DNA of 64,000 bases, from contig CAWKNZ010000001.1 of assembly GCA_963851265.1 (NCBI GenBank), forward strand, positions 32,001-96,000. Direction: 5' to 3'. The translations under genes and the position numbers were made by a program. Each line of letters starts with the position of its first letter. The first letter of the stretch is position 1. Origin of the DNA: an uncultured Gemmatimonadales bacterium. Its GTDB lineage: Bacteria; Gemmatimonadota; Gemmatimonadetes; Gemmatimonadales; Gemmatimonadaceae. Positions 41,733-54,650 of this stretch are shown in pieces. Below the pieces are notes generated by a model. That model had not been told where the DNA came from, did not search any database, and worked only from the letters and a program-made list of their open reading frames with translations.

Positions 41733-44039
41733 ATGCCGCCGTCCGCTGATCGCCCCGTCGGCAACCCCGCGGTCGTGTCTGGTCACTCGGGACTGAGGGT
41801 CTACCGGGCGCTCCCCGCCGCCGCCGGGCTCGCCGCGCTCGCGATCGGCACGCTGGTGCTCGTCGGCTGGACCACCAGGCTGGTCGTCCTCACCCGCGGG
41901 CTTTGGGCGACCACCGCCACGATGCCCGACACCGCGGTCGCCATCGTGCTGCTCGGCGTGTCGCTCTGGCTCCTCCGCCCGCGCGACGGCCGCGCACCGG
42001 CCGCCGGCACGCCCGCCGTCGGCATCGGACGCCTGTGCGCCGCCACGGCCTGCGTGCTCGCGCTGCTCATGGGTTTCGAGTGGGTCTCCGGGCGCGACCT
42101 CGGCATCGATCGCCTGCTGTTCTCGAGCGCGTTGACCGACGCCGTGCGGAACGGCGTCAGCGCGACGCCCGGGCGCATGGCGGGCAACACCACGCTCGCC
42201 GTGTTCCTGCTCGGCGCCGCCCTCCTCCTGCTCGACGCGCCCGCCCTCGAGGGCCGCGGTGCGGGCGCGCGCCTCGGACGCATCGCGCGGTGGGCGTGCA
42301 ACGGACTCGGCATCCTGCTGCCGTACTTCGCGGTCGTCGGGTACCTGTTCGGAGTGCGGCGGCTGTACAACCCGTCCGGGTTGCTCGCCGGTATGGCCCT
42401 CACCACCGCGTGCGCACTCACCTGCGTGGCCGTCGGGACCTCGCTCGCGCGCCCCGCCCGGGGCGTCGCGCGGCTGCTCACCGGCGAGGACGCGGGCGCC
42501 CACCTGCTGCGGCGTTCGCTACCGGTGACCGCGTTCGTGCCGGTGCTGCTCGGCTGGCTGCGCATCCGTGGCGAGGAACTCGGCTTCTTCACACCGCGCG
42601 TGGGCGTGGCGGCTATCGTCCTCGCGTTCACGGTCGTGATGGTCACGACCCTCACCCGGGCGGGCGCCGCCGCGTACAAGCTCGCCGCCGACCGCGCCCG
42701 CATCCTCGGCGAACGCGAGGCGGCGCGCGAAGCCGCACGCGAGGCGCTGGAGCGCGGCGAGGCCGAGTTCCGGGAACTGGCCGACAACCTTCCGCAGCTC
42801 GCGTGGATGGCCGACGCCACCGGCTCGATCTTCTGGTACAACCGGCGCTGGTACGACTACACCGGAAGCACGCCTGACCAGATGCTCGGCTCGGGCTGGC
42901 GTGTGGTCCAGCACCCCGACCACCTCCAACGCGTCGAGAACGGCTACCGGACCGCCGTCGCGCGGGGCACGCCGTGGGAAGACACCTTCCCGCTGCGCTC
43001 GGCCGACGGCGAGTGGCGCTGGTTCCTCTCGCGCGCCAACCCGATGCAGGCGTCGAGCGGAGGGACGGTTCGCTGGTTCGGTACCAACACCGACGTCACC
43101 GCGCAACGCGCCCTCGAGGCCGAGCGCGAGCGCCTGCTCGCCGCCGAACGCCTCGCGCGCGCCGACGCGGAGCGCGCGAGCGCGGAAGCCGCTGCGGCGA
43201 GTCGCGCCAAGAGCCAGTTCCTGGCGACGATGAGCCACGAATTGCGCACCCCGCTCAACGCGATCTCGGGTCACGTGCAACTCGTCGAACTCGGCCTGCA
43301 CGGGCCCGTCACCCCCGAGCAGCGTGACGCGCTCAACCGCGCCCAGCGCGCCCAGCGCCACCTGCTCGGCCTCATCAACGACGTGCTCAACCTCGCGAAG
43401 ATCGAGGCCGGGCGCGCCGACTACCGCATGGACGAGGTCGTCGTCGCCGAGCTCGCCGCAGACGTCACGTCGCTCGTCGCCCCGCAGCTCGCGGCCAAGG
43501 GCGTCACCTTCGCCGTCGACGTGCCCGACGAGCACGCGGCCGTCGCGTGGGCCGACCGCGAGAAGACATCACAGGTGCTGCTCAACCTGTTGAGCAACGC
43601 GATCAAGTTCACCGACGCCGGCGGACACGTCACCCTCGAGGCGCGCGCCGAGGACGGCGGCGCCGGACCCGTCGTGGTCTTCCGCGTGCGCGACACCGGG
43701 CGCGGAATTCCGTTCGAAGACCGCGACCGCATCTTCGAGCCGTTCGTGCAGCTCGACGCCGGGTACGCGCGGCAGCAGGAGGGTACGGGACTCGGGCTCG
43801 CGATCAGTCGCGACCTCGCGCGCGGCATGGGCGGCGACCTCACGCTCGTGACGAGCAGTGAGGACCACGGGTCGGTGTTCGCGCTTACGCTCCCCCGCGT
43901 GCTGCCGTCTGGCCCCGACGCCGACCGCCGAACCGGCGAGGAGCGACGCGACGGTCAACGCCGCGAAACCGCCGACCGGCGCACCGGCGAGGAGCGGCGC
44001 GACGAGCTGCTGGACCCGAACATCACGTTCGACAACTGA
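41733..44039 (+). CDS. Membrane-bound PAS sensor histidine kinase with Arg-rich C-terminal tail
   Basis: About 8 TM helices, PAS 'WYNRRWYDYTG...WRWFLSRA', H-box 'MSHELRTPLN', G-boxes. Confidence 0.9.
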   Translation: MPPSADRPVGNPAVVSGHSGLRVYRALPAAAGLAALAIGTLVLVGWTTRLVVLTRGLWATTATMPDTAVAIVLLGVSLWLLRPRDGRAPAAGTPAVGIGRLCAATACVLALLMGFEWVSGRDLGIDRLLFSSALTDAVRNGVSATPGRMAGNTTLAVFLLGAALLLLDAPALEGRGAGARLGRIARWACNGLGILLPYFAVVGYLFGVRRLYNPSGLLAGMALTTACALTCVAVGTSLARPARGVARLLTGEDAGAHLLRRSLPVTAFVPVLLGWLRIRGEELGFFTPRVGVAAIVLAFTVVMVTTLTRAGAAAYKLAADRARILGEREAAREAAREALERGEAEFRELADNLPQLAWMADATGSIFWYNRRWYDYTGSTPDQMLGSGWRVVQHPDHLQRVENGYRTAVARGTPWEDTFPLRSADGEWRWFLSRANPMQASSGGTVRWFGTNTDVTAQRALEAERERLLAAERLARADAERASAEAAAASRAKSQFLATMSHELRTPLNAISGHVQLVELGLHGPVTPEQRDALNRAQRAQRHLLGLINDVLNLAKIEAGRADYRMDEVVVAELAADVTSLVAPQLAAKGVTFAVDVPDEHAAVAWADREKTSQVLLNLLSNAIKFTDAGGHVTLEARAEDGGAGPVVVFRVRDTGRGIPFEDRDRIFEPFVQLDAGYARQQEGTGLGLAISRDLARGMGGDLTLVTSSEDHGSVFALTLPRVLPSGPDADRRTGEERRDGQRRETADRRTGEERRDELLDPNITFDN

Positions 44040-44042
44040 CCC

Positions 44043-44537
44043 GTGGCCGAAACCACACTCGACCTGCGACACCTCCCCAAGCACGACGCCTACGCCCAGC
44101 TCGACGCGCATGTGCGCGCGGTGCTCGCCGGCGTCGACGACCCTATTGCCGGGATGGCGACCGTGAGCTGCCTCGTGCACCACGCCTTCGGCCACCTGTG
44201 GACCGGGTTCTACCGCGTCGTCGACCCCGGCCGGCTGCTGCGTGTGGGCCCGTACCAGGGCACGCTCGGCTGCCTCGACATCGCGTTCGGCCGCGGCGTG
44301 TGCGGCACCGCGGCGGCCGACGGGCGGACGGTGGTGGTCGAGGACGTCGAAGCGTTTCCGGGCCACATCGCATGCGACGCGCGGTCGCGCAGCGAGATCG
44401 TGGTGCCGGTGTGGGACCGCGACGGCGCGCTCCTGGCCGTGCTGGACGTGGACAGTGAGCGCGTGGGCGCGTTCGACGCCGACGACGCCGCGGGGCTGGC
44501 GCGGATCGTCGCACGCTTCGCCGAACCGCCGGCGTAA
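44043..44537 (+). CDS. msrC: GAF-domain protein, free methionine-R-sulfoxide reductase-like
   Basis: 'WTGFY', 'GPYQG..GC', 'GRGVCG', 'GHIACD..SRSEIVVP', 'LDVDS'. Confidence 0.8.
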   Translation: MAETTLDLRHLPKHDAYAQLDAHVRAVLAGVDDPIAGMATVSCLVHHAFGHLWTGFYRVVDPGRLLRVGPYQGTLGCLDIAFGRGVCGTAAADGRTVVVEDVEAFPGHIACDARSRSEIVVPVWDRDGALLAVLDVDSERVGAFDADDAAGLARIVARFAEPPA

Positions 44538-44610
44538 CGGACCGCCTCGCACCGCCCCGCCGCACGACCGGCCCCACGCTCCGGCCCGCCCGGTATTACA
44601 ATCCCCCCCG

Positions 44611-45234
44611 ATGGCCGTCCCCGGATACTCCGACCGCGTCAACCACGCGCTCGCCTTCGCCGCGAAGCACCACGACCGCGAGGTGCGCAAGGGCACGCGG
44701 GCGCCCTACTTCACCGCGCCGGCCAACGTGGCCGTGATCCTCACGCGCTACGATTGCGACGAGGACACCGTCGTGGCCGGGGTGCTGCGCCACGCGGTCG
44801 AGGACATGCTGCGCGACGGGGCGAGCGAGGACGGCGTGCACGAGCGCCTGGCCGACAAGTTCGGCCCCGACGCGGTGGAGGCGGTGCTGCACGTGGCCCG
44901 CCGCCGCTTCGACGACGACGGCGTCGAGCTGTCGCACGAGGAGCAGAAGCACGACACGCTCGACCGCCTCGCCAGCGCGTCGGACGCGGCGCGGTGGGCC
45001 TTCGCCGCACACGAGGTGCACGACGCGGCCACCCTCCTCGCCGACCTGCGGCGCACGAGCTTTCCCGACTCGGTATGGCAGCGCGTCGCCGAAGGGCCGG
45101 TCGGGCGAGTCCGCTGGTACCACGACGCCGCGGCACGCCTCGCCGCCGTCGGATTCCACGCCGGCATCATCGACGAGTTGCGCGGCGCCGCCGCAGCCCT
45201 CGACGGCAGCGCGCCCGCGTCGATGGCCCGATAG
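44611..45234 (+). CDS. Small alarmone-hydrolase-like HD protein with degenerate metal motif
   Basis: 'ALAFAAKHH..VRKG..APY' and 'VAGVLRHAVED...KFG' match the RelA/SpoT HD fold. Confidence 0.7.
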   Translation: MAVPGYSDRVNHALAFAAKHHDREVRKGTRAPYFTAPANVAVILTRYDCDEDTVVAGVLRHAVEDMLRDGASEDGVHERLADKFGPDAVEAVLHVARRRFDDDGVELSHEEQKHDTLDRLASASDAARWAFAAHEVHDAATLLADLRRTSFPDSVWQRVAEGPVGRVRWYHDAAARLAAVGFHAGIIDELRGAAAALDGSAPASMAR

Positions 45235-45261
45235 CCGGGTCGACGCACGAAACACGAGAGG

Positions 45262-45287
45262 CGGGGGGCCCGGTGACGGGCCCCCCG
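45262..45287. terminator. GC-rich hairpin, probable terminator
   Basis: 11-bp stem cggggggcccg/cgggccccccg downstream of the HD gene. Confidence 0.55.
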
Positions 45288-45317
45288 TCGTGCGTCCGGG
45301 CTGGCAATCTCGACCAT

Positions 45318-45345
45318 TCAAGTCTGACTGCGGTCGTGCCGATAA
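45318..45345 (+). promoter_or_regulatory. sigma28 (FliA/WhiG)-like promoter
   Basis: TCAAG-N15-GCCGATAA; both boxes conserved in copy 2 while the spacer differs. Confidence 0.6.
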
Positions 45346-45476
45346 CGGAGCCCGAGGCGCTCGCCACCTCCGGCTCCGCACCTCGCTCCACTCCGCTTTC
45401 ACAGCAAAGACGCATATGTCGCCACGTCGCAACAGCAGCCCCCGGCTGCCGCGCGCGCGCCACATCGCCCGCGTCG
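45318..45476 (+). repeat. Duplicated leader block, copy 1 (promoter + uORF start)
   Basis: Colinear with 51257-51415; both have 98 nt from TCAAG to ATG. Confidence 0.85.
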
Positions 45477-45532
45477 GCCCGGCGCTCGGCCCCGCCGCCC
45501 GCGCCGGCACCCCCGCACCCCGGATCGGCTGA
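45416..45532 (+). CDS. Putative 38-aa leader peptide (uORF 1)
   Basis: MSPRRNSSPRLPRARHIARVGPALGPAARAGTPAPRIG; its TGA overlaps the next ATG. Confidence 0.45.
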   Translation: MSPRRNSSPRLPRARHIARVGPALGPAARAGTPAPRIG

Positions 45533-46221
45533 TGCCCCTCGCCTTAACCTCGTTCCGCCGCGGCCTGCGCGCCGCCACGCCCGCGATCGCCCTCGGCACC
45601 GCAGCCCTCACCGCGGCGCTCGCGGCCTGCTCCGACAGCAACAGCCCGACTGGCCCGGTCGTCGCGAGCGCCCGCACGCCGCAGCCCGTTGGGCCCGCGT
45701 ATGCGACCGCGAGCACGGCGGCCTCCCAGGTGCTCAGCCAGACCCAGAGCGGCGACACCACGGTCACGACCCTGCAGCTCGGCACGAGCACCGGCCAGCT
45801 GGTCGCGCAGATCGGGAACGCGAGCAAGATCGTCTTCCCGTACGCCGCCGCTTCGGTGTGTGACCCGGCGAGCTCGAGCTATGGCATCGGCACGTGGAAC
45901 AGCCCGTGTACCGCCGCCACGACCCCGATCCAGATCACGGCTAAGACGTGGGTCGACCCGGAGACCGGCAAGACCCGGAGCAGCTTCTCGCCGGCGCTCC
46001 GCTTCGTGCCCGGGCTCAAGAGCAGCGGTCACGCTCTACCTCCACGACCCGAACCAGCGTCGCGAGGCGACGCGATCTGGTACTGTCCCGACGGCGCGCT
46101 CACGTTGCGTGGACGAGGCGAGCGCGGACCCGAGCGTGGCCACCCAGTACGGCAGCAGTAGCCAGCGGGTCTACGCGCGGCCATCAAGCACTTCTCCGGC
46201 TACACCGTCGTCGTCAACTGA
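45532..46221 (+). pseudogene. HFSGY-terminated lipoprotein 1, multiply frameshifted (sequence error or decay)
   Basis: Lipobox LAAC. Similarity to 52089-52829 alternates between two frames over 46020-46185 and ends IKHFSGYTVVVN-stop. Confidence 0.7.
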
Positions 46222-46225
46222 CGGC

Positions 46226-46293
46226 GCGCGGACGGACGCGATCGGGGGCAGTCGGGCAGATGCCCGACTGCCCCCGATCGCGTCCGTCCGCGC
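46226..46293. repeat. Perfect 33-bp inverted repeat with 2-nt spacer
   Basis: gcgcggacggacgcgatcgggggcagtcgggca-ga-tgcccgactgcccccgatcgcgtccgtccgcgc. Confidence 0.9.
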
Positions 46294-46419
46294 CGCACGA
46301 AGCCCGTCTCGCCCCGCGGTGCCGGGCGATGTCACGCCCGGCCGACATACCCGTCCTATCGACGGCCACCGAGTGGCCTCTCGATTCGCACGCCCGTTCC
46401 CGCCGTCCCTGGTCCGCGC

Positions 46420-49400
46420 ATGTCCGCGCTCGCGCATCCCGCGCCCCGCCCCGCACACCTCCGCCTCGTGCCGGCTCACGCCGACGCGCTGCAGACGCGC
46501 GTCGCCGAACTGGTAGCGAGGGGGCAGGAGGCCGAGCGGCAGGGGCATCGGGCCGCCGCCCGCGCGAGCTTCGAACAGGCGCTGCACGCGCTCGACGACG
46601 CGGCGACGGCGCGCGAGCACGCGTCGGCCATCGTGCGCATGATCGCGCGCACCTGCCAGATGGATTCCGAGCCGGACGCCGCGCTCGACTGCCTCGAACT
46701 CGCGCTGGCGATCGCCGAAGCCTGGGCCGACGGAACGGGCATCGGCCACGCCATCAACGGGCAGGCGATCGTGAACTGGCAGACGGGGCGCCTCGATGAG
46801 GCGGAGCGCCTGTACCTGCTCGCGCGCACGCGCGCCCTGCAGAGCGGCGACGCGAAGCTCGCGGCGATGACCGCACAGAACCTCGGCGTCCTCGCGAACG
46901 CGCGCGGCGACTACGAGGTCGCCCAGCGCCACTACGAGCGGAGCCTCGCCGAGTACCGCGTGCTCGGCCTCACGCACGACGTGGCCGTCGCGCTCAACAA
47001 CCTGGGACGGCTGCACACCGCGCGCGGGCAGTGGAAGGCGGCGGAGCAGGTGCTCGTCGAGGCCGCCGAGATCTGCGACCTCGCGGGCGACGTTGCCACA
47101 CGCATCGCGGTCGACGCGAACGTGGCGGAGATGTGGGTCGCGCAGGGCGCGTTCGACCGCGCGCAGGCCGCGGTCACCCGCGCGATCGAAGGTGCGACGA
47201 ACGTCGGGGACACGTCGGTCCTGGGGCAGGCGGACAAACTGCTCGGGATCATCGCGCGCGAGGCGGGCGAGTTCGTGACCGCCGAACGGTATTTCGTACA
47301 TGCCGACGAGGTGGCGAGGGCGCGCCAGGACGTGCTGCTCCAGGCGGAGATCGCCCGCGAGCGCGGGGACCTGGCGCAGCGCGTCGGGAAGAACCGCGAC
47401 GTGCTGCAGCACCTCAATCGCTCGCACCGGCTGTTCACCGAGTTGCGCGCGGGCGCCGACGTGGCCGACATCGACCGGCGGCTCGGCGGGCTCGAGGCGC
47501 AGTTCCTCGAGGTCGCGCGCCGGTGGGGCGAGTCGATCGAGTCGAAGGACTGCTACACCCAGGGGCACTGCCAGCGCGTGGCCGACCTCGCGTGCCTCCT
47601 CGCCGAGCACGCGGGGGCCGACCACGGCTTCGACGCGCAGGCCATGTTCTGGTTCCGGATCGGGGCGCTGCTGCACGACGTCGGCAAGCTGATGATTCCG
47701 CCCGAGGTGCTCAACAAGCCGGGCAAGCTGACCGACGAAGAGTGGATCCTGATGCGGAGCCACACGACCGCGGGGGTGGCGATCCTCGCCGACATCGAAT
47801 TCCCCTGGGACGTCCGCCCGATCATCGAGTCGCACCACGAGCGGTGGGACGGGCGCGGATACCCGAACCGCCTCGTCGGCGAGGCCATCCCGCTCACCGC
47901 GCGCATTCTGTGCGTGGCCGACGTCTACGACGCGCTCACCTCGGTCCGGTCGTACAAGCGCGCCCTGACGCACGACGAGGCCGTGGGCATCATGCGCCGC
48001 GACGTCGGGACCATGTTCGACCCGCAGGTGTTTGCCTGGTTCGAGGAGATCGCCGCCGAGTGGGCGGGGCGCGTCGCCGCACCCGACGCGTCGCCGCCTG
48101 CCGCCGCCGCACCGGCGGTCGCGCCGCCCGCAGCGCCGGCGTCCGAAACCGGGACGTCGTCGGTGAGCGAGTCGGAAGCCCCCGCGCGCGCCGACGTGCC
48201 CGACGACCTCACCGGGCTGCCGCTCCGGCGAGCGTTCCGCGATACCGCCGAACGCATCCTCGCCGCGCGGCGGACCACCGGCCGGCCGGTGTCGCTGCTC
48301 GTCATCGACGTCGACCACTTCAAGCTCGTCAACGACACCTTCGGGCACCTGCAGGGCGACGACATCCTGCGGGCCGTGGCCGACCAGATCCGAGCCAGCA
48401 CCCGCCCGGTCGACTACCCGGCACGGTACGCGGGCGACGAGTTCGTGGTGCTCCTGCCCGGGACACGGCTCGACGAGGCACGGGCCGTGGCCGAGCGGAT
48501 CCGGTCGGCGGTCGCGCGTGCGACCTGTCCGCGGCGCGACGGACCGGGCGTGGTCTCGGTGACGCTGTCGATCGGTGTCGCGACCCTCCCGCAGCACGGC
48601 GAGACCCTCGAAGCCCTGTTCGCGGCGTCCGATGCGGCGCTCTACGACGCCAAGCGCGCCGGCCGGAATGCCGTGAGCGCGGGGTCGGCCGACGCCGACC
48701 GGCGCCGTGACCTGATGCTTGAGTGCTTCGTGGGGCGTGTGGCCGAGCGTGCCCACCTGCGCGAGCGCCTCGACGCGGCCGCCCAGGGCCGCCCGCACGT
48801 GGTCGCCGTGTGCGGCGAGGCGGGCGTCGGCAAGTCGACGCTGGTCAAGCAGCTCGCACCCGACGTCGGCATTCGCTCCGGCTCGCTCATCACCGGGCGG
48901 TGCGTCGACACCGACCTGCGCGCGCCGTACGCGCCCTGGGTGGACGCGGTGCTCGGCGTGCTCCGTGCCGGCATCGCCCCCCGGCATGCGTGGCGCGAGC
49001 TGACGCGCCTCGTCCCCGAGCTGGTCGGCGGTGCGGACGCGTCCCGTCGCGAGACGGGTTCGCCGCACGCGCTGCTCGAGGAACTCGACCTCTTCTTCCG
49101 CCTCGCGTCGGAGATCCGACCCATAGTCGTCGTGCTCGACGACATGCAGTGGGCGGACACTGCCAGCTGGAGCGCGCTCGAGTACCTCGTCGGCCGGTTC
49201 GACACGCAGCGGCTGCTGATCTGCCTCACCATCCGCGCCGAGGACCTCGACGATGCGGGCGACGCACGCCGCCGCCGGCTCTCGCGCGCCGACGTCTATA
49301 CCGAGATCTCGCTCCCCCGGCTCACCGAGGCGGACCTCGCGCTGTGGCTGCGGACGGCCCTCGGAGGCCAGGAGCCCGAGCCTGCGCTCCTCGCCTACCT

Positions 49401-51240
49401 CGTCGCGCAGAGCGAGGGGAACTCGTTCTTCGCGCTGCAGACGCTCCGCGCGCTCGCCGACGACGAGCGCCTGACGTTCGTCGACGGGCGCTGGACGTTC
49501 GATGCCGCGGCCGACGGCTCCATGCCGCGCGCGATCCACGATCTGCTCGCGCGCCGGGTCGCTCGGCTCGACCGACCCTGCCGCGACGCCCTCGCGGTCG
49601 CGGCCGTCCTCGGACGCGAGTTCGACCCGGAGACCCTGGTCGCGGCGTGCGAGGGGAACGAGGCCGGGGTACTCGACGCCCTCGATGCCGGGATGGAGGC
49701 CGCGGTGCTGGTCCCGTCCGAGATCTCGCCGACGGCCGTCGCGTTCGCGCACACGCTCCTCACGCGCGTGCTGCAGGACGGGATCAACCCGCTGCGCCTG
49801 CGTCGCATTCACGAGCGCGTGGGGCGTGCGCTGGAGTCGCGCGGCGGGCACGCGCCGGCCCAGGTCGCGCTGCACTTCGACCGCGCGGGGTGTGCCGAGG
49901 ACGCCTACCGGACGGCCATGAACGCCGGCGCGCGCGCGGCCGACCTGTACGCGTACGAGACGGCGGCGGACCTCTTCGAGATGGCACTCCGGCACGCGCG
50001 CACGCTGCGCGAGACGGCCGACGTCGAGTGGCGCACCGCGCAGATCGCCGAGATCCGCGGCCGCTACGCCGACGCGGAACGTGCGTGCGACGCCGTCCTC
50101 ACCACGTTCGCCAGCGGGGCGGCGGAGATCGGGATCCTGCGTGCGGCGCGCCGCATGCGCGAGCGACTCCGCCTTCAGCGAGGGGCGTCGGCGAGCCAGG
50201 TCGCCGAGACGTGTACCGAACTGCTCGCCGAGGCGCGCGCGGCCGGTGCCGACGAGGAGATCGTCCCGCTCCTGATCATGATCTCGACGGCGCACGGGCG
50301 GCGCGGCGACGGGTCCGAAGCGGCGCGAATCGCCCGCGACGCGAACGACGAGGCCGAGCGGCTCCGCAGCCTCCCGCTCCAGGCGGACGCCGCGATGCGG
50401 CTCGGGTCGACGGTCCTCGAGATCAGTCCCGCCGACGCCGTCCCGCACTACCGGCGGGCGCTCGACATCTTCACGCGCCTCGACAACCGGTACGGGCAGC
50501 TGCGCGCACAGATCAACATCGGCGTGGCCTGCGACCGGGCGGGGAACAGCCCGGGGGCGGAGGTCTCGTACGCGACCGCGCTGTCGATCGGGCGCGACAT
50601 CCGCGCGACGGACCTCACCGGCATCGCGTCGCTCAACCTCGGCGTGCTCCTGCTCAAGACTGGCCGGTTCGACGGCGCACGGGAGCGCTTCGAGGAGGCG
50701 CGACAGCTCTTCGTGACGATCGCGAACGAGCCGTACCGACTGGCCGCGCTGTACAACCTCGCGAACGTCGCCCGCGAGTGCGGCGACGCGGCCGGCGCGC
50801 TCGAGCTGTACGGCGCGGCCATCTCGCTCGCCGAGTCGTTGGGTCACGCCGACGTGCACGCCGGCGCCCTCGCCGGCGCCGGATTGGCCGAACTCGACCT
50901 CGGCGCGATGCGCGGCGCGCGCGTGCACCACGACGCCGTGCGCGCGCTCGTCGACGGGCGGACGGACGCGTGGTTCGAGGGGCGCGAGCTGTGCGAGGCG
51001 CTCGACGTCCGGCTCGCCGCGCAGGATGGGTCGGAGTCCGAGGCGGTCGCCCGACTGCTCGACGCGCTCGACCGCGCGGAGCTGCACAACCAGTACGCCG
51101 CCATCTGGCTCGGGGCCGAGTGCGCGGCCGTGCTCCGGAGCGCGGGACGCGTGGCCGAAGTCACGCTGCACCGGTTCCTCGTGCACGCGCGCGCCCTCGG
51201 CTACGACCCGCTCGTCACGCGACTGCGCGCGGACGGTTAG
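46420..51240 (+). CDS. TPR / HD-GYP / GGDEF / AAA (STAND-like) / TPR multidomain signalling protein
   Basis: TPR-like 'AQNLGVL','LNNLGRL'; 'LLHDVGK...HHERWDGRGYP'; 'DVDHFKLVNDTFGH..GD...RYAGDEF'; 'GEAGVGKS','VLDDMQWAD'; C-terminal TPR-like repeats. Confidence 0.92.
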   Translation: MSALAHPAPRPAHLRLVPAHADALQTRVAELVARGQEAERQGHRAAARASFEQALHALDDAATAREHASAIVRMIARTCQMDSEPDAALDCLELALAIAEAWADGTGIGHAINGQAIVNWQTGRLDEAERLYLLARTRALQSGDAKLAAMTAQNLGVLANARGDYEVAQRHYERSLAEYRVLGLTHDVAVALNNLGRLHTARGQWKAAEQVLVEAAEICDLAGDVATRIAVDANVAEMWVAQGAFDRAQAAVTRAIEGATNVGDTSVLGQADKLLGIIAREAGEFVTAERYFVHADEVARARQDVLLQAEIARERGDLAQRVGKNRDVLQHLNRSHRLFTELRAGADVADIDRRLGGLEAQFLEVARRWGESIESKDCYTQGHCQRVADLACLLAEHAGADHGFDAQAMFWFRIGALLHDVGKLMIPPEVLNKPGKLTDEEWILMRSHTTAGVAILADIEFPWDVRPIIESHHERWDGRGYPNRLVGEAIPLTARILCVADVYDALTSVRSYKRALTHDEAVGIMRRDVGTMFDPQVFAWFEEIAAEWAGRVAAPDASPPAAAAPAVAPPAAPASETGTSSVSESEAPARADVPDDLTGLPLRRAFRDTAERILAARRTTGRPVSLLVIDVDHFKLVNDTFGHLQGDDILRAVADQIRASTRPVDYPARYAGDEFVVLLPGTRLDEARAVAERIRSAVARATCPRRDGPGVVSVTLSIGVATLPQHGETLEALFAASDAALYDAKRAGRNAVSAGSADADRRRDLMLECFVGRVAERAHLRERLDAAAQGRPHVVAVCGEAGVGKSTLVKQLAPDVGIRSGSLITGRCVDTDLRAPYAPWVDAVLGVLRAGIAPRHAWRELTRLVPELVGGADASRRETGSPHALLEELDLFFRLASEIRPIVVVLDDMQWADTASWSALEYLVGRFDTQRLLICLTIRAEDLDDAGDARRRRLSRADVYTEISLPRLTEADLALWLRTALGGQEPEPALLAYLVAQSEGNSFFALQTLRALADDERLTFVDGRWTFDAAADGSMPRAIHDLLARRVARLDRPCRDALAVAAVLGREFDPETLVAACEGNEAGVLDALDAGMEAAVLVPSEISPTAVAFAHTLLTRVLQDGINPLRLRRIHERVGRALESRGGHAPAQVALHFDRAGCAEDAYRTAMNAGARAADLYAYETAADLFEMALRHARTLRETADVEWRTAQIAEIRGRYADAERACDAVLTTFASGAAEIGILRAARRMRERLRLQRGASASQVAETCTELLAEARAAGADEEIVPLLIMISTAHGRRGDGSEAARIARDANDEAERLRSLPLQADAAMRLGSTVLEISPADAVPHYRRALDIFTRLDNRYGQLRAQINIGVACDRAGNSPGAEVSYATALSIGRDIRATDLTGIASLNLGVLLLKTGRFDGARERFEEARQLFVTIANEPYRLAALYNLANVARECGDAAGALELYGAAISLAESLGHADVHAGALAGAGLAELDLGAMRGARVHHDAVRALVDGRTDAWFEGRELCEALDVRLAAQDGSESEAVARLLDALDRAELHNQYAAIWLGAECAAVLRSAGRVAEVTLHRFLVHARALGYDPLVTRLRADG

Positions 51241-51256
51241 GCGGTCAGGCGCGCGC

Positions 51257-51415
51257 TCAAGTCGCGCCGGGCTGTTGCCGATACTCCGGCCCGAGGGCGT
51301 CGCCACCTCCGGCGCCGCGCCTCGACCCACCCCGCTTCCACAGCAACGACGCATATGTCGCCACGCCGCAACAGCAGCCCCCGGCTGCCGCGCCTGCGCC
51401 ACATCGCCCGCGTCC
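51257..51415 (+). repeat. Duplicated leader block, copy 2 (sigma28-like promoter at 51257-51283 + uORF start)
   Basis: TCAAG-N15-GCCGATA, then a block nearly identical to 45350-45476. Confidence 0.85.
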
Positions 51416-51471
51416 CCTCGGCGGCAGGCCCCGCCGGTGGCGCGGTCTTCACGTTCACCTTGAGCATCTGA
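51355..51471 (+). CDS. Putative 38-aa leader peptide (uORF 2)
   Basis: MSPRRNSSPRLPRLRHIARVPSAAGPAGGAVFTFTLSI; stops 3 nt before the next ATG. Confidence 0.45.
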   Translation: MSPRRNSSPRLPRLRHIARVPSAAGPAGGAVFTFTLSI

Positions 51472-51474
51472 CTA

Positions 51475-52089
51475 ATGCGCCACCTCACATCATTCCGCCG
51501 CGCCGTGCACGTCGCGACGCCCGCGCTCGCCCTCGGCACGGCCGTCGTCACGGCCGCCCTCGCCGCCTGCTCCGACACCCCGACCGGGCCGGCCACTCCG
51601 AACGCGGCCGAAGCCGCGTTCCATCCGGGCCTGCACGCGAACGTGTCCTCGAGTCCGATGGCGGTCACGCCCGTCAAGCGGACGCAGCGTGTCGCGCAGG
51701 ACTCGGTCGTCACCTTCACCGTGCAGCCCGGCGGGACGACGTTCCGCGGCCCGGACGCCTCGATCAGCTTCCCGGCCGGGTTCGTGACCAAGCCGACGCA
51801 GTTCACGGCCACCCGCAAGGGTGGCAGCGCCCTCGCCTACGACTTCCAGCCCTCGGGCACCTTCACGAAGCCGGTGACGGTCACGTTCACGCTCGCAGGG
51901 GCGGCGATCCCGGCCGGCGCGAATCTCTCGGCGCTGCAGGGCGCCTACGTGCAGGATTGGAGTCAGGTCAGCGACTCCACGGCTGCGGTCAGCGAACTCG
52001 AGCCCACCACGGTCGACCCGAAGTCGGGCACGGTGACGATGACCCTCTCGCACTTCTCCGGCTACCTCGTCTCGTGGGGGCGGCGCTAA
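51475..52089 (+). CDS. HFSGY-terminated lipoprotein 2 (ZU5-like)
   Basis: Lipobox LAAC; 'GG...ISFPAG...FQPSGTFTKPVTVTF' is ZU5-like; ends LSHFSGYLVSWGRR. Confidence 0.8.
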   Translation: MRHLTSFRRAVHVATPALALGTAVVTAALAACSDTPTGPATPNAAEAAFHPGLHANVSSSPMAVTPVKRTQRVAQDSVVTFTVQPGGTTFRGPDASISFPAGFVTKPTQFTATRKGGSALAYDFQPSGTFTKPVTVTFTLAGAAIPAGANLSALQGAYVQDWSQVSDSTAAVSELEPTTVDPKSGTVTMTLSHFSGYLVSWGRR

Positions 52090-52829
52090 TGCGTAGCACG
52101 TTCGCCCCCCTGCGTTACGCCGTGCGCGCGGCCACGCCCGCGCTCGCCCTCGGCGTCGCCACGCTCACCGCGGTGCTGGCCGCGTGCTCCGATAGCTCCA
52201 CCGGCCCGACGCAGCCCAGCGCGCCGTCGGCGAGTCGTGCGGTCGCTCCGCCGCCCCCCGCGGCGATGCTCGCCGCGCTCTCGCAGGGCGTCCAGGGCGC
52301 GACCACCGGCCCGTCGTTCTCCCGCGTGGCCGAGCAGTCGGCGGTGGCGCACGGCGATACCGCCATCATCACGCTGACCTTCGACCCCACGGTCGCGCAC
52401 ACCGTCGCGTTCAACACGCGCACCAGCCAGAACGGCGTCGCCCTCGCCGCCAACTCGGTGTGCAACCCGGCGACGTCGGGCTACGGGCCACTCCTGTGGG
52501 ACGCGCCGTGCCAGGTGGCGACGAAGCCCTTCACCCTCACCGTCCGGGGCTGGATGGGAACCGATGGCCAGCCGAAGGTCGCGTTCTCGCCGGACATCCG
52601 GTTCGCGCCGTCGGCCACCAACTGGCTCTGGCTGGCGGGACCCGGCGCCGGGTCCGCGAAGGGCGTGATCGCGTGGTGCCCGACGGCCGGCGGCCTGTGC
52701 GTCAACGAGTCCGCGCTCGACGGAAGCGTGATGACCGGCACCGACAAGGGGATCTACTACCGGCGGATCAAGCACTTCTCCGGCTACACCGTGGTGGTGA
52801 ACCGGACCGGGGCGGTCGACGGTCTCTGA
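52089..52829 (+). CDS. HFSGY-terminated lipoprotein 3
   Basis: TAATG coupling to the upstream gene, lipobox LAAC, four further Cys, ends IKHFSGYTVVVNRTGAVDGL. Confidence 0.8.
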   Translation: MRSTFAPLRYAVRAATPALALGVATLTAVLAACSDSSTGPTQPSAPSASRAVAPPPPAAMLAALSQGVQGATTGPSFSRVAEQSAVAHGDTAIITLTFDPTVAHTVAFNTRTSQNGVALAANSVCNPATSGYGPLLWDAPCQVATKPFTLTVRGWMGTDGQPKVAFSPDIRFAPSATNWLWLAGPGAGSAKGVIAWCPTAGGLCVNESALDGSVMTGTDKGIYYRRIKHFSGYTVVVNRTGAVDGL

Positions 52830-52869
52830 CGGGGCGCTCGACCGCTGGGCCTCGATCGTCAGGCACCGA

Positions 52870-52932
52870 GCACGCGGAAACACACGGGGCCGCCGGGCGA
52901 CATGCCCGGCGGCCCCGTGTGTTTCCGCGTGC
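52870..52932. terminator. Perfect 29-bp inverted repeat between convergent genes (bidirectional terminator candidate)
   Basis: gcacgcggaaacacacggggccgccgggc-gacat-gcccggcggccccgtgtgtttccgcgtgc. Confidence 0.8.
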
Positions 52933-52937
52933 GAGCC

Positions 52938-54650
52938 TCAGCGTGTGGCCACCGTGCCGTGCGCGGCCTGCCCGGAATCGCCCGCGATGCCCCAGTCGGC
53001 GATTCCGGCCCACCAGGCGTCGGCGCGCATCGCGACCGGTCGCAGGTCCCGTCGCACGGCGGCGATGCTGCGCGGCTCGTATAGCCACACCGCGGGCGCG
53101 TCGTCGATGATCGTGGCGTAGGCGCGCCGAACGAGTGCCGTGCGGCGCTCCGGCTGGAACTCGGCGGAGGCGCTGTCGAGGAGCGCGTCGAAGGTCGCGT
53201 TCGTCCAGCGCCCGGAGTTGGCGCCGCCGTCCGCGCCGCGCGGCGTGCCCCAGTCGTGGCGCAGCGTGGTCGGATTCGGGTCGGTTCGCCACGAATTGAG
53301 CGCGACGTCGAAGTCGCCCGCGTGCAGGCGCTCGATGAAGCTTCCCGGGTCGACCGCGTCGATGTTCACGCGCACGCCGATCTGGGCCAGCTGGGCCTGC
53401 AGCAGCACCGCGAGACGCATGCGCGGCACGCTACTCGTGGGAACGAGGAGTGCGAGGTCGAGCGGCCGGCCGGCGCGCGCGCGCCGGCCCGACGTCGGGT
53501 CGAGCCGCCAGCCCAGGGCGTCGAAGCCGCGCGCCGCGGCGGCCGGATCGTAGGCGATCTGGCGGAGCGTCGTATCCGCCGTGGGTTGCGCGCGCGTGAA
53601 CGGTCCGAGGGCGACGCGGGCGCTGGGGCCGAGCGCGTTGCGCACCACCGCCGCGCGGTCGATCGCCTGGGTGAGCGCGACGCGTGCGGCGCGGTCGGCG
53701 AACGGCGCACCGATGCCGGCCCCGCGCGCGCCGGTGCGCGCCCGCTCGTTGAAGACGAGGAAGGCGTAATCCAGGCTGCCGTATTCGACGGTGCGCAGCC
53801 GGGGCGAGCGCGCCGCGCGGTCGATGGCCTCGCCGCGGACGGCTTCGAGCACGTCCGCCTGCCCCGACAGGACGCTGGCGAGCGCCGCGTTGGGGTCGCC
53901 GGTGACCGTCCAGACGACGCGGTCGAATCGCGGACGGCCGCGGTAGTTGGTCGTATCGGCGTTGAGGGTCAGCTGACGGTGGTGGTCCCAGGCGGCGAAC
54001 CGGTAGCGTCCGGAGCCGATCGGATGCGCGGCGAACGCGGACGTCGCGACGGCCGAACGCGGTACGCTGCCGAGCAGGTGCTCGGGCATCACGGCCAGGT
54101 TGTAAGCGACCTGGAAGAACTGCTCGGGGGAGCGGCGGTGCCACCACACGACGGCGGTGAGCGAGTCGCGCACGGCGACCGAGTCCATGCCCGCGAAATC
54201 GGAGGCGTGGACCGAAGCGCCCGTCGTGTCGGTGAACAGGGCGAACGAGAAGCGTACGTCGCGCGCGCGTACCGGCCGGCCGTCGTGCCAGCGTGCGCGC
54301 GGGTCCAGCTCGAAGGCGATCGAGAGCGAATCGGGGGCCCACGTCCAGCGCCGTGCGAGCTGCGGGCGGTAGCCGCCGTCGCCGTTGGTGGGGACCGAGT
54401 CGTCGGCGGTCGCGAGATGGTCGAAGACGAGGTCGACCGCCTGCTTGCCCTGGGTCGTGGCGACGAGCGGCGGGATCAGCTGGTCGGCGTCGGCCGGCGT
54501 CGCGATCACGAGGGCCTGGGCTCCGCGTCCCGACGGGGGGGTGCCGCGTCCGCAGGCCGCGACGGTGAGGGCCGCGAGCGCGGCGAGCGGGAGCGCGTGC
54601 GGGCTGGGGGCGTGCGGGCGGGGGGCGTGCGGGCGCGGCGACGGCGGCAT
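52938..54650 (-). CDS. Peptide/nickel ABC transporter substrate-binding lipoprotein (family 5)
   Basis: Lipobox VAAC, 'PQLARRW', 'RWHDGRPV.ARDVRFSF', 'PIGSGRYRF', 'ALTQAIDR'. Confidence 0.88.
   Translation of the reverse strand: MPPSPRPHAPRPHAPSPHALPLAALAALTVAACGRGTPPSGRGAQALVIATPADADQLIPPLVATTQGKQAVDLVFDHLATADDSVPTNGDGGYRPQLARRWTWAPDSLSIAFELDPRARWHDGRPVRARDVRFSFALFTDTTGASVHASDFAGMDSVAVRDSLTAVVWWHRRSPEQFFQVAYNLAVMPEHLLGSVPRSAVATSAFAAHPIGSGRYRFAAWDHHRQLTLNADTTNYRGRPRFDRVVWTVTGDPNAALASVLSGQADVLEAVRGEAIDRAARSPRLRTVEYGSLDYAFLVFNERARTGARGAGIGAPFADRAARVALTQAIDRAAVVRNALGPSARVALGPFTRAQPTADTTLRQIAYDPAAAARGFDALGWRLDPTSGRRARAGRPLDLALLVPTSSVPRMRLAVLLQAQLAQIGVRVNIDAVDPGSFIERLHAGDFDVALNSWRTDPNPTTLRHDWGTPRGADGGANSGRWTNATFDALLDSASAEFQPERRTALVRRAYATIIDDAPAVWLYEPRSIAAVRRDLRPVAMRADAWWAGIADWGIAGDSGQAAHGTVATR

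Follow-up and report, generated by a model that had tools for sequence, protein, structure and literature searches.

Small lipid-anchored ZU5/GAIN-B-like domains with a candidate self-cleavage motif adjoin a cyclic-di-GMP signalling gene in Gemmatimonadaceae

Results

Two tandem lipoproteins end in an HFS motif placed like a self-cleavage site

We analyzed a 64,000-nucleotide stretch of DNA, here called the window, from an uncultured bacterium of the Gemmatimonadaceae (assembly GCA_963851265.1, contig CAWKNZ010000001.1, positions 32,001 to 96,000). Two overlapping genes in this window encode small lipoproteins, lipoprotein 2 (P0001) and lipoprotein 3 (P0002), that end shortly after the sequence HFSGY, and a broken third copy, lipoprotein 1, lies upstream of them. 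A previous reading of these letters alone (the sequence-only reading) had likened the three proteins to self-cleaving ZU5 and GPS domains. Our analysis indicates that lipoproteins 2 and 3 very probably belong to the ZU5/GAIN-B ('MAIN') fold and family, and in the predicted models their His-Phe-Ser (HFS) residues lie in the tight turn that leads into the final strand, in register with the cleavage site of GPS and FIIND domains. That the two proteins actually cleave themselves we regard as probable, at roughly 60%; catalysis is proposed because the motif is conserved and because a bacterial precedent was described in 2026. The kind of domain is already known, since bacterial ZU5 autopeptidases were predicted in 2012 (PMC3482391) and self-cleavage at HFS was described for bacterial MAIN (Microbial Autoproteolysis INducing) domains in 2026 (Brogan & Rudner, bioRxiv 10.64898/2026.05.12.724683). 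The variant, a minimal, inverted and lipid-anchored domain with a conserved cyclic di-GMP (c-di-GMP)-signalling partner, is new to the literature and libraries that were searched.

The fold was assessed on AlphaFold2 models, which were compared with known structures by Foldseek (PDB) and VIA-align. The model of lipoprotein 2 had a mean predicted local distance difference test (pLDDT) score of 80.6 (means of 10-residue blocks across residues 61-200 were 88-97, mostly 93-97), and that of lipoprotein 3 a mean of 79.0; both were nearly all beta, with a single short helix in lipoprotein 3. For lipoprotein 2 the best Foldseek match was an ankyrin ZU5 domain (4d8o, E 7e-5), one of four matches at E<=0.001, and VIA-align matched it to ankyrin ZU5 (6m3q_E, Z 10.5, root-mean-square deviation 2.5, 113 aligned), the GAIN domain of CD97 (Z 8.4), UNC5b (Z 7.5) and the ZU5 domain of ZO-1 (Z 6.6). 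The best Foldseek match of lipoprotein 3 was the GAIN domain of BAI3 (E 1.3e-3); here VIA-align gave ankyrin ZU5 (4d8o, Z 10.7), the GAIN domains of BAI2 (Z 9.9) and BAI3 (Z 9.5) and the FIIND of rat NLRP1 (Z 6.8). Because unrelated sandwiches, glycosidase domains for example, reach only Z ~5-6, the ZU5/GAIN matches stand clear of the background. The fold search suggested by the sequence-only reading thus returned, for both predicted models, a ZU5/GAIN-B-like beta-sandwich. Structures of Nup98 and PIDD were not among the fold-search matches listed, which excludes nothing. When the isolated domains of lipoprotein 2 (residues 58-204) and lipoprotein 3 (78-246) were submitted to complex prediction, the score was 0.00 in both runs.

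The ZU5-like pattern that had been read from the letters of lipoprotein 2 finds support among its relatives, 10 of 19 of which match Pfam ZU5 at E<=1. The curated cut-off of that model, 21 bits, was passed by three of the seven HFS-domain proteins scanned (P0020, 25.8 bits; P0100, 24.8; P0019, 22.1), with matches that span profile positions 1-35 of 97 only. Pfam ZU5 (PF00791) matched neither P0001 nor P0002 at E<=10, and in the lipoprotein-3 family it matched 0 of 120 sequences.

To place the motif we used cleaved relatives of known structure. Crystal structures show that, once a GAIN domain has been cleaved, P1 is the final residue of its N-terminal chain. Aligned with lipoprotein 2, all five such chains listed end at Phe194 (4dlq_A, ..837; 5kvm_A, ..382; 8hc0_A, ..566; 7qu8_A, ..249; 8vti_A, ..854), and all five listed for lipoprotein 3 end at Phe230 (4dlq_A, 5kvm_A, 8hc0_A, 7qu8_A and 6v55_A); HFS therefore sits where the superfamily cuts itself. 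Among these reference proteins, the cut in latrophilin CL1 falls at L837|T838, where H836 has been proposed to act as the base (PMC3321182), and that in GPR56 between residues 382 and 383 (PMC10607210). Given a gap-free alignment of the last strand, Ser231 of lipoprotein 3 falls on S857 of BAI3, whose P1 residue is L856 (PMC3321182), and on S969 of rat NLRP1, which is cut at F968|S969 (PMC8081665).

The motif itself is found exactly where it had been reported: the His codons (CAC) of the three copies start at 46189, 52051 and 52773, and TTC TCC GGC TAC follows directly after each. Counted from the Ser, the tails are SGYTVVVN in lipoprotein 1 (8 residues), SGYLVSWGRR in lipoprotein 2 (10 residues) and SGYTVVVNRTGAVDGL in lipoprotein 3 (16 residues); a hydrophobic segment is absent behind all three, in agreement with the earlier statement that no transmembrane helix follows the motif. 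A six-frame scan of the 4.6-Mb genome found seven occurrences of HFSG[YFW], where 0.63 were expected from composition, and each of the seven falls in a lipobox protein whose stop comes 8-16 residues on, counted from the Ser.

Both N-termini consist of a basic n-region, a hydrophobic stretch, the sequence LAAC and then a Pro/Thr/Ala-rich linker. LAAC conforms to the lipobox pattern L-[AS]-[GA]-C as judged by inspection, and the lipobox Cys is invariant in 19/19 relatives of lipoprotein 2 and present in 119/120 of lipoprotein 3. The shared signal peptides noted earlier were evident by BLASTP of the two proteins, which aligned this region only (25/38 identical, residues 7-44 against 8-45). The bodies had been called dissimilar, and they indeed give no BLASTP alignment, but by hhalign the two families are remote homologues along their entire length (probability 99.4%, E 4.9e-21, 187 columns). 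The n-regions of P0001, P0002 and their relatives carry a conserved [ST][FLV]RRA[VIL] before the hydrophobic core, loosely resembling a twin-arginine translocation (Tat) signal; Pfam and NCBIfam signal-peptide models, Tat included, did not match P0001 or P0002. Were Tat export true, the domain would fold, and could cut itself, before leaving the cytoplasm. The mature domain of lipoprotein 2 has no Cys, and that of lipoprotein 3 has four (residues 125, 141, 197 and 204), which may form disulphides.

Of the three paralogues that had been proposed, all three HFSGY copies are present, but the first gene is broken rather than intact. Lipoprotein 1 has an in-frame TAG at 46159-46161 and, relative to its paralogues, four compensating frame switches at ~46020-46185; its leader, signal peptide, lipobox and terminal HFSGYTVVVN* (46189-46221) are still readable. 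This copy is either a pseudogene or a local assembly error. One soil sequencing run covers just 45300-45508 and 46182-46217 of the region, outside the frameshifted part.

The motif is conserved across two diverged families

Relatives of both lipoproteins were collected to ask how constant the motif is. A word-indexed search returned 22 relatives of lipoprotein 2 at E<=0.001, and an exhaustive profile search returned 2439 cluster representatives at the same threshold, 418 of them at E<=1e-30 (clusters and representatives are defined at 50% identity throughout). In the alignment of this family (n=19) the motif never varies at H, F, G and Y, and its S is kept in 18 sequences, with Arg in one. Among a further 147 representatives, HFS occurs in the last 45 residues of 146 and HFSGY in 142; the tails measure 7-40 residues (median 12), and a lipobox-like pattern is seen in 124. 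Nearly all 147 are 190-230 residues long, so the lipoprotein-2 family consists of small stand-alone proteins. Longer fused forms of lipoprotein 2 were sought among 8000 candidates and none was found at E<=0.001, which is weak evidence.

For lipoprotein 3, 125 relatives were found at E<=0.001. In the 120 aligned, H and F are present in every sequence and the third position is S in 115, T in four and A in one; an acidic residue stands at position 207 in 120/120. Taking both families together, His and Phe are invariant in 139/139 aligned relatives at <40% identity overall. Where relatives have a named source, it belongs to the Gemmatimonadota (Gemmatimonadetes bacterium T265, Roseisolibacter, Gemmatimonadaceae, Longimicrobiaceae and Gemmatimonas). 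When a sample of 201 genomes of the phylum was searched with the lipoprotein-3 profile, 5 gave a full-length match (E 6.7e-54 or better), in a tally that takes in the unpublished genome G097, on which no claim is based. These five, G076, G077, G131, G171 and the window's own genome (G000), are all from the window's own family; in the other 60 genomes with a match it was mainly the signal-peptide part that matched.

Two unusual arrangements were seen among the relatives. The metagenomic protein P0100 (388 residues) is a lipoprotein-3 domain fused to a lipoprotein-2 domain, with HFSGY in each. As a single sequence on a 1.3-kb contig it may be an assembly artefact; taken as it stands, it supports a functional link between the lipoprotein-2 and lipoprotein-3 genes. 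Separately, 17 of 121 lipoprotein-3 relatives, all from metagenomes, carry a second copy that resembles the strand, composed of [AS]G[YFH], a brief hydrophobic stretch and then Gly (SGYILASG, for example), at or near the C-terminus and separated from the HFSGY strand by a linker of 25-65 residues (P0038, P0040, P0048, P0049, P0051, P0054, P0056, P0058, P0060, P0065, P0066, P0069, P0071, P0077, P0091, P0095 and P0121); in P0069 the second copy is a full HFSGY. Such copies suggest strand swapping or donor-strand exchange between molecules, and together with the P0100 fusion they hint that the last strand matters.

Self-cleavage and its alternatives

We propose that lipoproteins 1-3 are paralogous exported lipoproteins, each built of a lipid-anchored N-terminus, a flexible linker and one ZU5/GAIN-B beta-sandwich. 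The His would activate the Ser hydroxyl, the Ser would attack the Phe carbonyl in an N-to-O acyl shift, and the ester would then be hydrolysed, giving a lipid-anchored fragment that ends in Phe and a Ser-starting peptide of 10 or 16 residues. Because the final strand of the sandwich is formed by this very peptide, it would probably stay docked non-covalently, rather than floating free, until the domain is unfolded or degraded. The sequence-only reading had held that cleavage would free the peptides. Docking is more likely, given that residues 186-201 of lipoprotein 2 are modelled inside the sheet at pLDDT >90 and that the fragments of GAIN, FIIND and MAIN domains are reported to stay associated. 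Its parallel with the tethered peptide in G-protein-coupled receptors (GPCRs) of the adhesion class keeps the structural likeness but lacks the receptor, none being attached to the tail.

A number of observations weigh against self-cleavage. The register argument uses only the first and last aligned residues. Fold likeness is no proof of catalysis, and the best matches are to the ZU5 domains of ankyrin and ZO-1, which to our knowledge have not been reported to cleave. Neither P0001 nor P0002 has a Pfam or NCBIfam match above threshold, Foldseek found no PDB match to lipoprotein 3 at E<=0.001, and a profile search of PDB sequences gave at best E 0.16, to ZO-1 ZU5. Pfam ZU5 has no match at E<=0.01 in the genome of the window, a result that is uninformative because 14 control genomes have none either. 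Since neither a domain nor an anchor stands behind the cut, the release of a large ectodomain, which cleavage of this sort usually serves, does not apply here. Variants without the nucleophile exist, namely HFRGY in P0010 and HFAGY in P0030. Finally, BAI3 keeps L-S at its site and is yet reported to be non-cleavable (PMC10607210).

Much of this would be expected if the domain were a non-cleaving structural or binding ZU5-like sandwich, in which HFSGY is kept to pack the last hairpin with the Phe in a hydrophobic pocket. Ankyrin ZU5 domains as best structural matches, the Ser-less variants, the lack of anything downstream to release and the existence of near-canonical but inactive GAIN sites such as that of BAI3 all favor this explanation. 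Packing, however, needs neither a His nor a hydroxyl, and the His is invariant in relatives that have otherwise diverged widely, and Thr, which could likewise act as the nucleophile, is nearly the sole substitute for the Ser. Moreover, the same H-F-S is catalytic in the bacterial MAIN domains of Brogan & Rudner. We consider a non-cleaving sandwich somewhat unlikely, and the best placed of the alternatives.

A second alternative is that some other machinery, for example a surface-export pathway or a protease that processes C-termini, recognizes the motif as a signal for sorting, anchoring or degradation. The motif does always lie 7-40 residues from the C-terminus with variable tails behind it, and many tails of the lipoprotein-3 family end in an aromatic residue. 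Against this, the motif and the residues that follow are in the core sheet at pLDDT >90, the following residues match the final strand of ZU5 and GAIN domains in the alignments, neither a hydrophobic helix nor a known sorting motif stands behind them, and the shortest tails (7-8 residues) are the strand alone; a signal of this sort appears highly improbable. Coincidence, or spurious translation of G+C-rich DNA, could also be invoked for the shared HFSGY. Nothing speaks for this except the many spurious open reading frames (ORFs) that a G+C content of ~74% yields, and it is refuted by the genome motif count, with every hit in a lipobox ORF near its stop, and by conservation of the motif in hundreds of homologues.

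Comparison with known self-cleaving domains

The closest counterpart of the proposed self-cleaving lipoproteins is the MAIN domain, e.g. that of Bacillus subtilis YfkN, with which we compared them through its published description. As described by Brogan & Rudner, MAIN domains are bacterial and exported, have a GAIN-B-like sandwich with H-F-S in the turn before the last strand, and are cut between the Phe and the Ser, as determined by Edman sequencing; changing the Ser to Ala abolishes cleavage, Thr restores it, and the fragments stay together. They differ from the lipoproteins in architecture, as they combine a large N-terminal ectodomain with a C-terminal envelope anchor. This order of ectodomain, domain and C-terminal anchor was not found here: the lipobox Cys is residue 32 or 33, no other domain is present, and 10 or 16 residues follow the predicted cut, so that the C-terminal fragment would be an unanchored peptide (8-16 residues across the genomic copies). 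The available text of the preprint links no signalling mechanism to MAIN, whereas the genes described here adjoin c-di-GMP enzymes, and its main text (supplements excepted) has no mention of 'lipoprotein', 'Gemmatimonad', 'standalone' or 'ZU5'.

ZU5, GPS and Nup98 were united in one superfamily by Zhang et al. 2012 (PMC3482391), who also predicted that bacteria have autopeptidases of the ZU5 type in polymorphic toxins and in large surface proteins; in a search for literature that pairs ZU5 with lipoproteins or Gemmatimonadetes, theirs was the only relevant paper among the matches listed. The bacterial ZU5 domains of that paper, as far as they are described there, are N-terminal in very large RHS or surface proteins, unlike the small proteins of this locus. 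With the ZU5 autopeptidases PIDD, Nup98 and the NLRP1/CARD8 FIIND the lipoproteins share the fold class, relatives that match Pfam ZU5 and, in the case of rat NLRP1, an F|S cut site, which is predicted for the lipoproteins. The eukaryotic members of this group are followed by UPA, death or CARD modules, whereas nothing follows the cut here, and NLRP1 uses a distant His (H942), whereas the His of the lipoproteins is at P2. PIDD and Nup98 also have a His at P2.

The likeness to the GAIN/GPS of adhesion GPCRs (PMC3321182) comprises a GAIN-B-like sandwich (Z 8-10), the sequence H-hydrophobic-S/T, P1 at the same structural place, and a cleaved strand that is an integral beta-strand. The lipoproteins differ in having no helical GAIN-A subdomain, no seven-transmembrane domain behind the site and no GPS Cys-x-Cys pair, the Cys residues of lipoprotein 3 being at other positions.

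The lipoprotein genes adjoin a TPR/HD-GYP/GGDEF protein

Between lipoproteins 1 and 2 lies the gene of a large signalling protein, P0141, with Pfam matches to GGDEF (1.8e-43), HD_5 (4.8e-36), TPR_12 (3e-31) and AAA_16 (4.8e-28). Its domains follow in the order N-terminal TPR (residues 1-370), HD-GYP phosphodiesterase, GGDEF cyclase, AAA_16 (STAND-like) ATPase and MalT-like C-terminal TPR, and no segment of it is membrane-like, the highest 19-residue hydropathy being 1.34. Orthologues of 1605-1629 residues occur in related genomes, and shorter forms also stand beside lipoproteins, either TPR-HD-GYP-GGDEF (~730-750 residues) or GGDEF-AAA_16-TPR (~1000-1100 residues).

A gene of this TPR/HD-GYP/GGDEF/AAA_16 type lies directly beside an HFS lipoprotein in 11 of 15 loci, which were drawn from seven related genomes and are not independent. 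It is present in the window and in L001, L004, L016, L017, L020, L021, L022, L023, L024 and L025, and was not found in L002, L003 (cut at a contig end), L005 (a 6.7-kb contig) and L018. Locus L022 repeats the order lipoprotein, large protein, lipoprotein seen in the window; longest-ORF calls put its gaps at <=15 nt. In L001, from a Longimicrobiaceae bin, the lipoprotein is just 35% identical, so the pairing outlasts deep divergence. Three of the four TPR-HD-GYP paralogues in the window's genome have a lipoprotein neighbor; tblastn found no lipoprotein adjoining the fourth (C2:0.91 Mb, L019). Since the genes are kept beside cytoplasmic TPR/HD-GYP/GGDEF proteins, we think that the lipoprotein module probably feeds into c-di-GMP signalling in some way.

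One way in which it might do so is suggested by the RRNPP systems (Rap/Phr, PlcR/PapR, NprR/NprX), in which an exported precursor with a C-terminal signal is encoded beside a cytoplasmic TPR protein. There the precursors are pro-peptides of 40-60 residues that are cut by secreted proteases. The locus resembles these systems in its exported precursor beside a cytoplasmic TPR gene and, in the window, in an adjoining gene for an Opp/Dpp-type binding protein; it differs in that the precursor is a folded lipoprotein of 200 residues that would process itself, and in that the output would be c-di-GMP turnover. In such a model the lipoproteins would be self-processing precursors of a peptide signal. 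The pre-cut SGY... peptide would be locked in the sandwich and released when the lipid-anchored domain is unfolded or degraded in the envelope, comparable to the activation of NLRP1 when its N-terminal fragment is degraded. After uptake, perhaps via the neighboring family-5 binding protein, it would be recognized by the TPR domain that the HD-GYP/GGDEF enzyme encoded alongside carries, and c-di-GMP would be reset. We regard this model as speculative and rather unlikely. The TPR part of P0141 resembles kinesin-light-chain-type TPRs (best E 4.9e-10), no RRNPP receptor is among its 31 sequence matches, and the family-5 substrate-binding gene adjoins the locus in the window and in the orthologous L004 and in none of the other loci.

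Layout of the locus and its leader sequences

The features of the locus are collected in Table 1. The lipoprotein 2 stop and the lipoprotein 3 ATG overlap (TAATG). The region is dense in signalling genes, since genes for a PAS/histidine-kinase (41733-44039), a GAF-domain protein (44043-44537) and an HD_4-domain protein (~44596-45231) are located upstream of the locus.

Table 1. Positions in the window of the lipoprotein genes, their motifs and the neighboring elements
Feature	Position	Strand	Description
Leader copy 1	45337..45497	+	conserved; blastn
Upstream ORF, copy 1	45416..45532	+	38 codons; TGA overlaps lipoprotein 1 ATG (TGATG)
Lipoprotein 1	45532..46221	+	lipoprotein-3 type, broken; tblastn with paralogues P0022 and P0023, three-frame translation
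Hairpin after lipoprotein 1	46228..46291	+	G+C-rich, terminator-like, without T run
P0141	46420..51240	+	1606-residue cytoplasmic signalling protein: TPR, HD-GYP (HD_5), GGDEF, AAA_16 ATPase, TPR
Leader copy 2	51276..51436	+	conserved; blastn
Upstream ORF, copy 2	51355..51471	+	38 codons; TGA, then CTA, then lipoprotein 2 ATG, in frame
Lipoprotein 2 (P0001)	51475..52089	+	204 residues; LAAC lipobox, Cys32; disordered linker to about residue 60; ZU5-like beta-sandwich 61-204
His193-Phe194-Ser195 of lipoprotein 2	52051..52059	+	predicted scissile bond Phe194|Ser195
Lipoprotein 3 (P0002)	52089..52829	+	246 residues; LAAC lipobox, Cys33; linker; GAIN-B/ZU5-like beta-sandwich ~80-240
His229-Phe230-Ser231 of lipoprotein 3	52773..52781	+	predicted scissile bond Phe230|Ser231
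Hairpin after lipoprotein 3	52856..52933	+	between convergent genes
ABC substrate-binding protein	52938..54650	-	family 5 (peptide/nickel type); convergent with lipoprotein 3; Pfam SBP_bac_5 4.4e-63

A leader of ~160-200 nt, 80-85% identical between copies, precedes four of the five HFS-lipoprotein loci of the genome, whose mature proteins are <40% identical. The copies lie at 45337-45532 and 51276-51471 in the window and at C1:155535-155693 (minus strand) and C3:263936-264165 elsewhere in the genome. By blastn the first is 85% identical over 161 nt to the copy at 51276-51436 and 80-84% identical to those at C1:155.6k and C3:264.0k; for the fifth locus, on C2, there is just a weak leader match of 41 nt elsewhere on that contig. 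An ORF of exactly 38 codons is found in all four copies, with an Arg-rich and nearly invariant stretch of 20 residues at its start and a stop that overlaps the lipoprotein start or sits 3 nt before it. This ORF may encode a leader peptide with translational coupling. The metagenomic relatives P0006, P0008 and P0009 have a similar peptide joined in frame to their signal peptide.

Neither blastn nor tblastn gave a significant match to the leader or the short ORF near homologues in the loci from other genomes or metagenome bins that were compared (L001-L007 and L009-L012). For the leader sequence upstream of the short ORF the consensus fold was weak (-11.7 kcal/mol, three covarying pairs, four sequences), and Rfam models run over 45000-53000 gave sub-threshold hairpin matches only, with no riboswitch in the leader. 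A sigma-70 scan of 45100-53000 found no promoter-like site, and the sigma-54 consensus (<=2 mismatches) had two matches in the window, fewer than in shuffled sequences and none near the lipoprotein genes. The hairpins at 46228-46291 and 52856-52933 are long, nearly perfect and G+C-rich and lack a T run; only microRNA-type models match them, below threshold. They are probably transcription stops or stabilisers.

Discussion

The architecture described here is inverted and minimal: an N-terminal lipid anchor, one domain, and nothing after the last strand. It belongs to a large family, ~2,400 clusters at 50% identity, that is invisible to Pfam in the genome of the window, and its gene stands beside that of a cytoplasmic TPR/HD-GYP/GGDEF protein in most loci. 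With the anchor at the N-terminus, no passenger and a stop 8-16 residues after the cut, cleavage could shed only the domain's own last strand. We know of no signalling role for bacterial self-cleaving domains of the GAIN/ZU5 type. Not until 2026 were such domains shown to work in bacteria, where, in the proteins of Brogan & Rudner, they release large surface proteins.

Were the peptide-signal model true, the locus would represent a Gram-negative, self-cleaving counterpart of RRNPP quorum and stress sensing, and a first signalling role for a microbial GAIN-like domain. If cleavage is confirmed, these lipoproteins would provide a very small and tractable model of GAIN-type autoproteolysis, and whether the 'tethered peptide' idea predates animals would become directly testable.

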